Shown here piece by piece: positions 14,201 through 18,600 of a stretch of DNA of 64,000 nt (the first letter of the stretch is position 1; the number at the start of each line of letters is the position of its first letter). The notes beneath the pieces were generated by a model, which saw only the letters and a list, made by a program, of their open reading frames with translations, made no database searches and had not been told where the DNA came from. The translations under genes were made by a program, and so were the position numbers. Source of the stretch: a virus; the IMG/VR virus record IMGVR_UViG_3300021594_000641, positions 125,676 through 189,675 of that record. One strand, given 5' to 3'.

Positions 14201-15608
14201 GCGTAACTTTGTATACATCAAAATCTACATACGTATCACCGGCAGCGTTATTTACGTAAAGATAAGCATTGAATTGCCAGTTGCCGGCTGAAAGAACGGA
14301 CAACCCTGGCTGCCCTACTTCCGTTACGTAAGCGTTTATAAGTTTACGCGCTGAACTGGTTACAGCAGCTGAGTAGGTAACTTCAGCTGCTGTGTCAGAA
14401 TTAACGGTTAGTAAGTTGTAAAGAGTAGCAGGGTCAGGAGTTGTAGTCGTAGTGGTAGTAGTTGTTGTAGTGGTCGTAGTCGTAGTTGTTGTAGTGGTGG
14501 TCGTAGTTGTAGTTGGTTCGGTGTAGTTGCCGTCAGCAACTGTTATGGCCGACCATCTCTTATCCGTTCCTGAAGGATTGGGTAAAAACCCGCTGCTCCA
14601 GGCTAGCCCGTCTGAGGAATACTGCGTAAGATTTGACGAGCTTTGTATGACTACAACTCTATCCAGAGTAGAGCCGTATTTTAAAGCTACTGGGTAGAAT
14701 GAGGAAGGAAAGTTAGTGTATTTGGCAAAAAAGTATATGCCGTCTGTGGATGTGTAATAAACTGAACCAGTACTTATAAGAACAATCTTATCGCCAATAA
14801 ACTCGATGTCTAAAACTGCGTTGCCGGAAATCGCCACCGCATAAGAAGTCCAAGAAACGCCGTCTGTAGACCTTAAGAAATTACCAGAGCTAGCTGTTAT
14901 TATGAATTTACTGTAAGCATAAATTATGTTTGTCCAAAGCCCAGACTCTGGCAAAGTTACCGAAGACCAAGTCGAGCCGTTAGTAGAAGATGCCGCGTTA
15001 CTTGAGTTAAAGTTTATTGCTATGTATTTTCCGTTACCGTAAGCAATATCAAACCAGTTGCCTACGGCTGGCAAAGTGTACTGAGTCCAAGTCTGTCCAT
15101 CTGTTGACGTCAAGACTTGGTCTGTGTCGTTTCCTAATATAAAGAAAGTGCCATTTATAAATTTTATTTTTCGCCAGTTTCCTACTAGCGGCAAAGTTCC
15201 TAAAGCCCAGCTTAGACCATCTGAAGAATAAGCAAATTTGTCTGTACCGTAGGCTGGAGTAATAAACAAGCCGCTGCCGTAGGCAACCGAGATGAAGTCA
15301 TAAGAGCCGTTACCTGGCAAAGTTCCCCTGGTCCAGGTTATGCCGTCGTAACTTGCGGCAGAGTCAGGAGTAAACGACGAAACTGCTACAAACCTTGAGT
15401 TGTTTGGTGCCGCTGTAGTGGTGGTAGTAGTAGTGCTGCTACCGGCTTTAGTGTAAAAGTCTGAAGATTCTACCTTTGTATTTTCGTCTATTGTTTCTGG
15501 TTTGAATTTATCCAAACCATAAAAGCTATAATTCTCGGCGGAAGCACTTGTGCTGTCGCCTGAGTTTAAGCTGATAGACCTGTCTTTGTTTTTGTTTCGT
15601 CTTGCCAA
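11259..15608 (-). CDS. Collagen-like fibre protein with N-terminal beta-propeller-like repeats, 25-Thr linker and interspersed globular domains
   Basis: TTG start with GAGGG RBS; S.DG.TW repeats; Thr run 14439..14513; (G-X-T)n; duplicated [10 protein letters not shown] domain. Confidence 0.85.
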
Positions 15609-15621
15609 GGCTAGAACCCTC

Positions 15622-18600
15622 TTAAGGGTTGTCGACTAATGGGACTGTGCTTTTTACAGAGTTGAAAAAATACATTCTTCCATAAGCTGAAGTCCCCGTT
15701 TGACCTGTTTGACCAGTCTGGCCGGTAGAACCTGTCGCGCCTGTAGACCCCGTCTGACCAGTTGCTCCGGTTGCTCCCGTAGCTCCAGTCTGTCCTGTAG
15801 AGCCTGTAGAGCCTGTTTGTCCTGTTGCTCCCGTATATCCCGTCTGCCCTGTAGAGCCAGAAGCGCCCGTCTGGCCTGTAGCTCCTGTGGCTCCAGTCTG
15901 TCCAGTTTGACCGACATCACCTGTTTGCCCAGTAACGCCCGTAGAGCCGGTATACCCAGTTTGACCGGTCTGACCTGTAGATCCTGTAAACCCTGTTTGC
16001 CCAGTGACACCTGTTGCTCCAGAATCGCCAGTCTGCCCCGTAGCGCCTGTTGAGCCTGTAGACCCAGTCTGACCAGTCTGGCCTGTGCTCCCAGTCTGAC
16101 CTGTTATTCCAGTAGCGCCGGAAGCCCCTGTTTGTCCTGTAACTCCGGTTGCGCCAGTCTGACCCGTAATTCCTGTAGCGCCTGTTTGTCCTGTCTGCCC
16201 AGTTATTCCGGTAGCGCCGGTCTGGCCAGTTGCTCCGGTAGACCCGGTAGTTCCAGTCTGACCAGTTTGACCTGTAGCTCCTGTTTGCCCTGTAACGCCT
16301 GTTTGACCTGTAGCCCCAGTTGCTCCTGTTGCGCCTGTTGCGCCGCTAGCTCCTGTTGGACCTACAGCTCCTCCAGATATAGGAGTATGAAAATGACTTA
16401 CGTTTATAGTGCCGTTATGTACAAAATAAATTGTTCTAGCTTGATTAGAAGTTGTCTGTCCGTAAACTTTTACAACTATTCGGTCGTTTGAGCCTAGGCT
16501 TATACTTCCAGTTTGGTAATAACTAGTGTTATTTAATTCAACTGTAGTGTGTTCTACTATTGGCCCTTCGAGCTGGAACAATAAGGTTTCAGTTCCACCA
16601 GGAGTTCTAGTGTAGACATCGAATCTAAGTGAAGTGTCGCCGTGCAAAGTATCTACATAAGTGTATGCGTTAAATTCCCATATGCCTGGATTTATTACGG
16701 TTACTCCAGGCTGTCCGGTTACTGTCGCGTAGGAATGCAGCAAAACAGCGCCTTGTCCAGAGCCTATGCTTATTAGCTGAGTTTCCTCTGTGCCTCCTGG
16801 AGCGTATGTCGTCAAAGACTCCATTCCAGTAATGTCTGATTCCGCTGCATCAAAGAAGTAAGTTCTACCAAAACCTTGTATACCGGTAGCGCCTGTGGCT
16901 CCTGTAGCCCCAGTAGCCCCGGTTGCGCCTGTCTGCCCTGTGGCTCCTGTATACCCTGTTTGGCCTGTTGCTCCAGCCCCTGTTTGTCCTGTGGCTCCTG
17001 TCTGCCCAGTGGCTCCTGTGGCCCCTGTTGCTCCCGTAGCCCCGGTAGAGCCTTCTGCCCCTACTGCACCATCTAGGTTTACGTACCAAGAAGAATAAGA
17101 GCCTGAGCCCACATAAGCATCTTTAGTGCATACTAAAGTGCCAGAACCCAAGCCGCTGGAATAACTTACAACGGTAGCTTCTTGATAGTTTTGATAATCG
17201 TATGCTATTACGATTGTTTGACCGGCTGTGTAAGCTAAGTCTGCGCCTACTGTTAAATTTAAAGTTCCGCCGGTGCCTAAAGTAAAAGTGTCTAAACTTA
17301 TGGTTGAATATTTATCACCAGGAGAGCCAACCGCGCCTGTCTGACCTGTAGCTCCTGTTGAACCTGTTGAACCAGTCTGACCGGTTGATCCTGTTTGGCC
17401 TGTAGCGCCTGTAGCGCCTGTTTGACCAGTTTGTCCGGTCTGCCCTGTTATTCCTGTTGAGCCTGTAGACCCCGTTTGCCCAGTCTGTCCAGTAACGCCT
17501 GTTTGACCAGTGTCTCCCGCGCCTGTCTGGCCTGTAGCGCCTGTTTGTCCTGTAGCTCCTGTAGCGCCGGTATCTCCAGTAACACCTGTAGCTCCCGTTG
17601 CTCCGCCGTCGGCTACCGGAGTCCAAGATTCGTTTATAGACCCTGGAGTAGGAGGGTATCCAGGATTTAAGGGGTTACCTGTTCTGTAGTAATACCCTCC
17701 TTGATAAGTAACCGCTGCTCCTATGTTGTAAGAAACTCCGTTGTCGTAGGGTGTTGCTGGAAGAGTCCAAGGAGTAGGTCCAGTCGCTCCAGTTGCTCCT
17801 GTTTCACCTGTAGCGCCTGTGTAGCCTGTGGTGCCTGTCGCGCCAGTCGCGCCAGTAGCTCCGGTTTCTCCTGTTGCCCCTGTGGCTCCCGTATAGCCTG
17901 TTTGACCTGTAGACCCAGTCGCGCCTGTAACTCCAGTTTGTCCAGTATCACCGGTTTGGCCTGTAGCGCCTGTAGCTCCGCTTTGACCTATTTGCCCAGT
18001 TTGACCGGTCTGACCAGTTTGCCCCGTAGCTCCTGTAACGCCGGTAGCCCCGGTTATTCCTGTTTGGCCTGTTTGACCGGTCTGCCCAGTTGTTCCAGTA
18101 GAGCCTGTTACACCAGTCTGTCCTGTAATTCCAGTCTGACCTGTGGTTCCAGTTTGCCCAGTAGCGCCTGTAGCGCCGGTAGACCCGGTAGCCCCGGTTT
18201 GGCCTGTTTGACCTGTTGCTCCTGTTTGACCTTCTGCTCCTGTTACACCAGTCTGCCCGGTTTGACCAGTCGCGCCTGTTTGGCCTGTCTGGCCTGTAGC
18301 TCCTGTAGCTCCTGTGGCACCGGTCGCTCCGCTCTGTCCAATTTGCCCTGTCTGCCCGGTGGCCCCTGTAGCGCCCGTTGCTCCTGTTTCACCTGTTGTG
18401 CCAGTAGCCCCTGTTGCTCCTGTAGCGCCTGTGGCTCCAGTAGCCCCGGTTTCTCCGGTAGCCCCTGTGTACCCAGTTGCTCCTGTAGCGCCGGTTGCCC
18501 CAGTAGCACCAGTAGCGCCTGTGGCCCCGGTAGTTCCGGTTGACCCTGTTGATCCAGTAGCCCCGGTTGCGCCAGAAGCCCCTGTTGCTCCAGTCTGCCC

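Follow-up and report, generated by a model that had tools for sequence, protein, structure and literature searches.

When one fibre gene of a virus ends with the beginning of a folded domain and the gene next to it carries the remainder of that domain, the question is whether the domain has simply been broken or whether its two parts are made to meet. This question is raised by a locus in the window analysed here, which is the terminal 64 kb (64,000 nucleotides (nt), positions 125,676 to 189,675) of the 189,675-bp IMG/VR virus record IMGVR_UViG_3300021594_000641, the completeness of which is 91% according to CheckV. The minus strand of the window holds almost every long open reading frame (ORF), including replication genes and a series of large structural genes, and two adjacent ORFs of this strand, here designated ORF A (15622..19038) and ORF B (11259..15608), share one beta-sandwich domain. 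We report that the division of this domain is conserved among related phages, and that it probably creates a joint at which successive trimeric fibre segments are held together non-covalently by strand complementation and a beta-propeller is tethered.

Both proteins are collagen-like, as shown by their matches to the Collagen family PF01391 (cut-off 27.2 bits): 355.5 bits and E 1e-108 for ORF A, and 255.2 bits and E 2.2e-77 for ORF B. In both, small globular domains are set between Gly-X-Thr runs. ORF A, the proximal fibre protein of 1138 amino acids (aa), is made up of an N-terminal anchor, collagen runs, three small globular domains and a C-terminal donor tail. One of the globular domains is an intact jelly-roll of about 165 aa (D3; aa 725-889, 16372..16866, minus strand as all features below), which is defined by similarity and by its predicted fold. 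The donor tail, delimited by the alignment of six such tails, comprises the last 23 residues past the final collagen run (15625..15693) and contains a GRxYFF strand, which corresponds to beta-1 of the divided domain, together with a short extension at the C-terminus that closes with VDNP. In fact, the final ~21 residues of ORF A repeat the start of D3 and are followed directly by the stop codon TAA (15622..15624). ORF B encodes the fibre segment that follows (1449 aa as called) and starts with a TTG (15606-15608) placed 7 nt behind a GAGGGT Shine-Dalgarno-like site (15616..15621). Its product consists of a leader of 58 aa with a basic start (aa 1-58, 15435..15608), a first tract of 7 Thr (15414..15434), a propeller region of ~300 aa, a second tract of 25 Thr written in mixed codons (14439..14513), which tethers the propeller to what follows, and the acceptor part of a D3-type domain (D3 prime; aa 391-546, 13971..14438), which extends from beta-2 to the last strand. 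This acceptor part is colinear with the remainder of intact D3 and beta-1 is absent from it. A virtual join of the A tail and B aligns with intact D3 from end to end, with a gap of 7 residues at the junction, and scores 359.5 as compared to 300.5 for B alone. The claim of an earlier note on this DNA, according to which one beta-sandwich domain is divided between two ORFs, A ending with its start and B carrying the rest, is thus confirmed.

The divided domain could in principle result from an artefact of assembly or sequencing, since the record is a metagenome-assembled genome and a 1-nt frame break near ~11270, at the 3' end of ORF B, may be such an error. However, over 13482-16000 one contig per run was recovered from 4 runs of 4 studies with 0 differences and 0 gaps, 0.99 of the words sampled from the 5-kb stretch 11000-16000 are present in 20 public runs of 12 studies dated 2019-2025, and two diverged relatives (L005 and L006, see below) share the architecture. 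The concern that the split might be a misassembly is removed by the identical contigs of the four studies, and we consider an artefact to be practically negligible as an explanation. The source labels of the 20 runs are nearly all freshwater or lake metagenomes, and this freshwater phage seems to be both widespread and genetically stable. The four-run contig comparison also returned many short-sided joints (23-45 nt) connecting collagen-coding stretches, which we read as repeat cross-matches and not as deletions, and the one match that megablast returned from the phage collection is a trivial one of 65 nt.

The intact copy D3 belongs to a large family. A HMMER search with D3 recovered 1446 representative clusters at E<=1e-3 and 576 at E<=1e-10, the best match having E 1.6e-46, and nearly all of 150 listed matches (of 1446) cover the whole domain and lie within collagen-like proteins. 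The intact copy is a member of this family by full-length similarity, with the whole domain in one polypeptide; the second copy, divided between A and B, and five junctions in relatives depart from the family in precisely this last respect. Pfam and PHROG scans yielded no model for the D3 domain, the sole Pfam match being TNF (PF00229) at 14.1 bits, below its cut-off of 23, and D3 cannot be assigned to the TNF / C1q group on this basis. In agreement, the nearest structures retrieved by Foldseek are the C-terminal jelly rolls of CocE/NonD hydrolases (template modelling (TM) score ~0.6) and CBM4, with TM scores of 0.23-0.30 against TNF/C1q chains. AlphaFold2 folds intact D3 with confidence as an all-beta domain when given a 41-row alignment, with a predicted local distance difference test (pLDDT) value of 94.2 and a predicted TM score (pTM) of 0.89; the alignment is needed, as the prediction from the single sequence is useless (pLDDT 35.5). 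In the D3 model beta-1 spans residues 10-17 and beta-2 residues 24-27. The family consensus consists of a hydrophobic beta-1 followed by a SDIxGYExL-like motif, and the split point falls inside this motif, in the beta-1/beta-2 loop. Two further candidates for a split copy were rejected, P0259 because its start is miscalled, the frame being intact from position 5338 of its contig (L003), and P0190 because it is cut by the contig end. An ordinary intact copy of the domain was also noted in a small phage (L013). A homologue search with B residues 392-552 found nothing, and a search with an alignment (A5) extended to longer lengths found nothing either, in which case candidates arising from chance words probably crowded out relatives, so that this result is no evidence of absence.

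The arrangement is not peculiar to the window. Six split junctions were identified in four phage lineages, namely the A|B junction, one in a metagenome contig of 1,088 bp (L002), and two in series (j1 and j2) in each of the viral contigs L005 (191,966 bp) and L006 (89,381 bp); three additional metagenome contigs (L007-L009) are identical to L006 over both junctions. The B-like ORF of L002 (P0201) has the same basic leader and Thr tracts, its truncated domain is 58% identical to that of the window, and upstream of it lies a gene that closes with collagen followed by this same beta-1 motif and a stop. In L005 and L006, gene 1 has an N-terminus orthologous to that of ORF A and ends with the beta-1 motif and VDNP; gene 2 comprises a TTG start, a basic leader, a short Ser-rich linker and a truncated domain, and itself ends with the beta-1 motif; gene 3 comprises a TTG start, a basic leader, a Ser/Thr tract, a propeller, 26 Thr and a truncated domain. 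The domain order being colinear, intact D3 of the window occupies the position of the first split junction of L005 and L006.

At the DNA level the six junctions align as stop, 1-12 nt, GAGGGT, 6-7 nt and TTG-GCx, the upstream and downstream genes being adjacent in every case (13-24 nt apart). Every upstream gene ends with collagen, the motif [FY]GRxY plus two aromatic or aliphatic residues, and 10-13 residues more. In the leaders only the basic start MA[RKN][RS][KRN]K is kept across junctions, while the remainder is variable and of low complexity, with a loose acidic-Phe-Tyr/Pro motif shared in front of the Ser/Thr linker. Junctions lacking a propeller (L002, L005 j1 and L006 j1) also retain the stop, the ribosome site, the TTG, the basic leader and the linker. 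Judging from these alignments, the split, the start signals and the leader constitute one conserved unit. A search of viral contigs with the junction DNA pattern gave no match. Two features of individual relatives are recorded here. In L002 a TAG (1006-1008) directly follows the jelly-roll domain of the B-like ORF and Gly-X-Thr codons go on in frame after it, which in this one 1,088-bp contig could stem from a nonsense mutation, from another split or from read-through of the stop codon. The acceptor domain at the propeller-bearing junctions of L005 (11631-12218) and L006 (10569-11156) has, in its first part, two extra segments of ~14 and ~16 residues as compared to the window, suggesting that the socket tolerates sizeable loop insertions.

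The history of the split was analysed with 169 copies of the domain placed in one tree. All six that are split, including P0201 of L002, group in a single clade with a Shimodaira-Hasegawa-like support of 98, and the split thus arose once and was then duplicated. The intact copy of the window is placed outside this clade, nearest to other intact members (45% identity); since it occupies the junction-1 position and comes from another lineage, this points to module exchange rather than to re-fusion. A single ancestral fibre gene, as proposed in the earlier note, is plausible in deep time only and not as a recent state, since these phages diverged after the split had arisen. Regarding the donor tail, the codons of L005 and L006 differ at 9 synonymous and 3 non-synonymous positions at j1 and at 4 synonymous and 0 non-synonymous positions at j2, a pattern which, though the sample is small, speaks for purifying selection on the tail, unlike what is expected for a decaying remnant.

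The propeller (14514..15413) follows a different logic. Its region in ORF B contains seven Asp-box-like motifs with a spacing of ~40 aa, and motifs and homologues suggest a seven-bladed beta-propeller of the DUF6242_C / BNR / sialidase-like type. The Pfam model DUF6242 itself matches with 15.6 bits, below the cut-off of 29, and the nearest Atlas clusters are DUF6242_C/sialidase-like (0.95). Hundreds of homologues are found in large surface proteins and phage fibres; many of those listed carry PF25852 and/or PF03736, with Pfam matches to DUF6242_C or EPTP. A phmmer search of PDB sequences with the propeller retrieved nothing useful, and pattern scans of viral contigs, with the propeller or the intact domain as a single sequence, recovered no relative. 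The propeller of gene 3 in L005 is colinear with that of the window and 36% identical to it over 309 residues, which indicates that the propeller is old. At the L002 junction there is no propeller and the two Thr tracts abut, meaning that the split and the propeller are separable. From these comparisons the propeller is a separate and optional module, placed between two Thr tracts, and it probably acts as an accessory glycan- or receptor-binding module.

We have then considered whether the A tail is structurally able to complete the B domain. The structure prediction of the tail plus the B domain, which the earlier note had put forward as a check, was run with the last 40 residues of A and the truncated domain of B, and resulted in an interaction prediction score from aligned errors (ipSAE) of 0.90, as compared to 0.15 for the best of 3 controls. 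Among solved complexes 58 of 80 attain such a mark, and among mismatched pairs 2 of 110 do; as the complex was modelled with alignments of our own, these counts apply only roughly. Three runs of the complex share at least 80% of contacts, with a partner pLDDT of 61-64, and all 21 non-collagen residues of the tail contact B in the model. Tail residues 25-28 (Tyr-Phe-Phe-Asn) run antiparallel to two strands of B, beta-2 (residues 10-15) and the last one (residues 150-153), and the A tail is thus modelled as a central strand of the core and not as an edge strand. When paired with the true tail the B acceptor has a pLDDT of 85-87, as compared to 66-74 when the partner is unrelated.

These results suggest a mechanism in which the products of ORF A and ORF B are translated separately and become subunits of a single trimeric, collagen-like fibre built in segments. 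The last ~20 residues of A would supply beta-1, entering between beta-2 and the last strand of the incomplete B domain, and a trimer, with three insertions of this kind, would hold the distal segment B on the proximal segment A with no covalent bond. The position of the B TTG, 13 nt past the A stop and behind a strong GAGGGT, suggests coupled translation and hence matched amounts of the two proteins. The split would also free an N-terminus in the middle of the fibre, at which B places its basic leader, Thr-rich tethers and propeller. As beta-1 and the last strand are antiparallel neighbours, we infer that the collagen arriving from A and the collagen continuing into B come together at one end of the domain; in this case the domain would form a lateral lobe, the Thr tether and propeller would leave from its far end, and the propeller would hang sideways at the joint, with three per node. 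The propeller as a side branch on a Thr tether, another proposal of the earlier note, follows from this geometry and shares its conditional character. Extending the model to the whole ~190-kb freshwater phage clade, we regard the chances as evenly balanced that these phages build segmented, branched collagen-like fibres by means of a reusable split-domain connector, the mid-fibre N-terminus displaying propellers on probably glycosylated Thr-rich tethers and the B leader possibly holding the groove until the A tail displaces it, in a donor-strand exchange without a chaperone.

A number of points weigh against strand complementation as the function of the split. The complex model indicates compatibility and not binding or assembly, and the halves of a split domain can pass such a prediction through likeness to the intact fold known from the family. 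Also, the model describes a 1:1 pair of the A tail and the truncated B domain by themselves, the selection counts rest on 21-23 codons, and the split is confined to four lineages of one clade, L007-L009 being identical to L006. A hairpin around the A stop is no more stable than in shuffled sequences, which leaves the spacing of the genes as the sole basis for translational coupling, and at two junctions, that of the window and L006 j1, frame B stays open for the 14 nt ahead of the A stop, such that low-level +1 read-through could occur there. The proposal of the earlier note that a strand of A completes the domain of B is sustained by the conserved split, the purifying selection, the confident fold and the outcome of the complex model, up to the level of compatibility and short of binding. 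Alternatively, the gene may have undergone fission with no complementation between chains, A and B forming independent fibres or B being attached elsewhere; the B domain would then be tolerant of the loss or be completed in cis by a strand of the leader, and the A tail would be a conserved cap with another role. The acidic-Phe-Tyr/Pro motif of the leader could in theory form a surrogate strand, and the acceptor retains a pLDDT of 66-74 with the unrelated control partners. However, the leaders are poorly conserved past the first ~7 residues, whereas the A tail keeps the family beta-1 motif at every junction and under purifying selection; the true tail raises the acceptor pLDDT to 85-87, and the genes are always adjacent, 13-24 nt apart. 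Fission of this kind is thus unlikely, though of the alternatives to a strand-complementation joint it is the one we take most seriously.

The remaining alternatives deny that two separate chains are made or that the split is old, and the junctions speak to both. A single A-B polypeptide would arise if ribosomes underwent a programmed +1 shift at CCU-UAA, or if they bypassed the long stretch separating the two ACCCT copies; the propeller would be a nested insert in the first case (frameshift) and be skipped in the second (bypass). In the window frame B is indeed A+1 and open 14 nt before the A stop, this stop lies within a small hairpin, and a separate +1 break is found at the 3' end of B. The stop-to-start distances at the six junctions are nevertheless 16, 26, 17, 27, 16 and 27 nt (modulo 3: 1, 2, 2, 0, 1 and 0), and at 3 of the 6 frame B has a stop between the A stop and the TTG, which makes a frameshift fusion impossible there and shows that the proteins are made separately. 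Neither a conserved frame relation nor a slip or take-off site emerged: the frame offsets vary, CCU to CUU is a poor slip, and the CCT take-off codon is absent from the j2 junctions and from L002, while the ribosome site and TTG start are kept at 6 of 6. RNA folds of the six junctions compared with shuffles give z-scores from +0.5 to -1.3, so the hairpins are no better than chance; at the VDNP-type junctions (15596-15650; L005 7830-7884; L006 7810-7863) the Asn-Pro codons are observed to pair with GAGGGT in a hairpin of 4-6 bp round the stop, which gives no more than a hint of coupled translation. The translational hop of T4 gene 60 covers 50 nt and, to our knowledge, a bypass of 1195 nt has no precedent. 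Recoding is a very improbable explanation. The earlier note had further treated the 1195 nt as a single cassette, with precise excision or splicing as an alternative; on such a reading the stretch would be a recent insertion, mobile or intron-like, with ACCCT as target duplication. The repeats are where the note placed them (15625-15629 and 14430-14434), these 5-nt direct repeats are found at both ends, and virtual removal of the 1195 nt does join the frames (15608-14429 = 3 x 393). However, the left ACCCT corresponds to conserved Asn-Pro codons, which also occur at the two propeller-less j1 junctions, so the repeat is not evidence of insertion and is coincidental. Moreover, start signals, leader and linker are conserved where there is no propeller, and the propeller is separable and old (36% identity, colinear with that of L005); these observations contradict a single cassette. 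Excision and splicing fare no better: Rfam covariance models run over 13800-16200 on both strands gave no intron match up to E = 1, and hence no sign of a group I or II intron, Pfam gave no HINT or endonuclease domain in the split region, none of the contigs of the four runs joins across the 1195-nt stretch, and the frames are variable with B closed at 3 of 6 junctions. A recent cassette is, if anything, even less probable than recoding. A split intein was rejected as well, as neither tail nor leader holds a HINT-type Pfam domain, the tail continues with the first strand of the host domain itself, and tail and leader at j1 together amount to less than ~70 residues and are poorly conserved.

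The strand-complementation joint proposed here can be compared with several known systems. In the chaperone-usher pili (Fim/Pap) an incomplete beta-sandwich is completed by the terminal extension of the neighbouring subunit, giving rise to a strong non-covalent chain; the pilin has an Ig-like fold which lacks its C-terminal strand, and the donor is an N-terminal extension. The likeness is one of mechanism only, an incomplete beta-sandwich being completed by a neighbour, because the phage joint has a jelly-roll fold, lacks a strand that is N-terminal and central, and has a C-terminal tail as donor; also, the phage subunits are trimeric collagen-like rods and the joint originates from the splitting of a normally intact domain. 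Pfam/PHROG scans of part of the ORFs of the window revealed neither chaperone nor usher genes. In the engineered SpyTag/SpyCatcher pairs a strand cut from a beta-sandwich rebinds the remainder and is locked by an isopeptide bond; these pairs are artificial and covalent, whereas the phage joint gives no indication of a covalent bond. Multi-protein phage fibres and branched tailspike adaptors have their products encoded in a row, with end-to-end joints and receptor-binding modules at nodes. An example is the T4 fibre, composed of gp34-gp35-gp36-gp37 (PMC5537660 for gp34). Unlike the phage joint proposed here, the joints of such fibres have not been portrayed as a single recognisable domain shared by two genes, and the fibres are not collagen-like.

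Further parallels come from bacterial surface structures. In the F-ENA endospore appendages the terminal peptides of F-Anchor and F-BclA, both of them collagen-like, interlock with a partner beta-structure, and the stalks of these trimeric collagen-like proteins are Thr/Ser-rich and putatively glycosylated (PMC12357932). Terminal-peptide docking of trimeric collagen-like proteins and Thr/Ser-rich stalks are thus common to both, but F-ENA is a structure of bacterial spores, built with a DUF4183 head-neck and an N-terminal hook peptide, and does not involve a domain divided between adjacent genes. The C-terminal tails of PilC/PilY1 are reported to join minor pilins by beta-strand complementation or augmentation (PMC12918778, PMC13711793); there too a conserved C-terminal tail adds a strand and fixes a propeller-bearing module to a fibre. 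The PilC/PilY1 case differs in that it concerns the tip of the type IV pilus, unrelated folds and an augmenting strand, whereas the phage strand would replace a core strand lost by fission. Searches of full-text literature did not turn up a comparable joint for phage fibres, which is weak evidence of novelty. The joint would share the donor-strand principle with these systems and be distinct in fold, polarity, collagen context, origin by fission and use for a side branch.

If this is correct, the joint would add a new principle to the assembly of phage fibres and provide a non-covalent connector of proteins that is ready-made. Working as modelled, it would allow a long fibre gene to be cut into exchangeable segments while mechanical continuity is kept, and receptor-binding side branches to be added at the cut, with a bearing on the evolution of host range by module exchange as well as on the register and joining of trimeric collagen-like rods. 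The tail and the acceptor would constitute a small natural strand-and-socket pair, and thus a candidate tool for protein assembly. For annotation, a short C-terminal remnant beside an N-terminally truncated domain need not mean a broken gene.

Some minor observations were made in the same genes and elsewhere in the window. Between collagen runs of ORF A there is a globular insert of 56 aa (17605-17772, minus strand) with weak matches, both below threshold, to CBM_5_12 (E 0.71) and to a PHROG tail-fibre family (E 0.023), and it may be a small carbohydrate-binding knob. At the 3' end of ORF B (11259-11290, minus strand) the +1 frame runs on after the stop into the ORF 10157..11110, whereas the equivalent stretch of L005 and L006 (Thr-Gly-Pro-Gly-Thr-Leu-Ser...) stays in frame; the ~11270 break is by this comparison a genuine 1-nt frame difference of the window with respect to its relatives, for which a real mutation, an error of the assembly and recoding are all conceivable, and the Logan contigs of all four runs end at 11270-11272. 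A possible second case of a divided domain lies at 1168-2815 (minus strand), where, going by the translations only, an 88-aa ORF (2549..2815) ends like the start of an Ig-like strand pattern. In the ORF 1168..2121 a short leader precedes an extended Ser/Thr tract (21 Thr), after which a beta-rich region and a LamG domain follow, and a CxxCxxCC (YkgJ-type) gene is located between these two ORFs.

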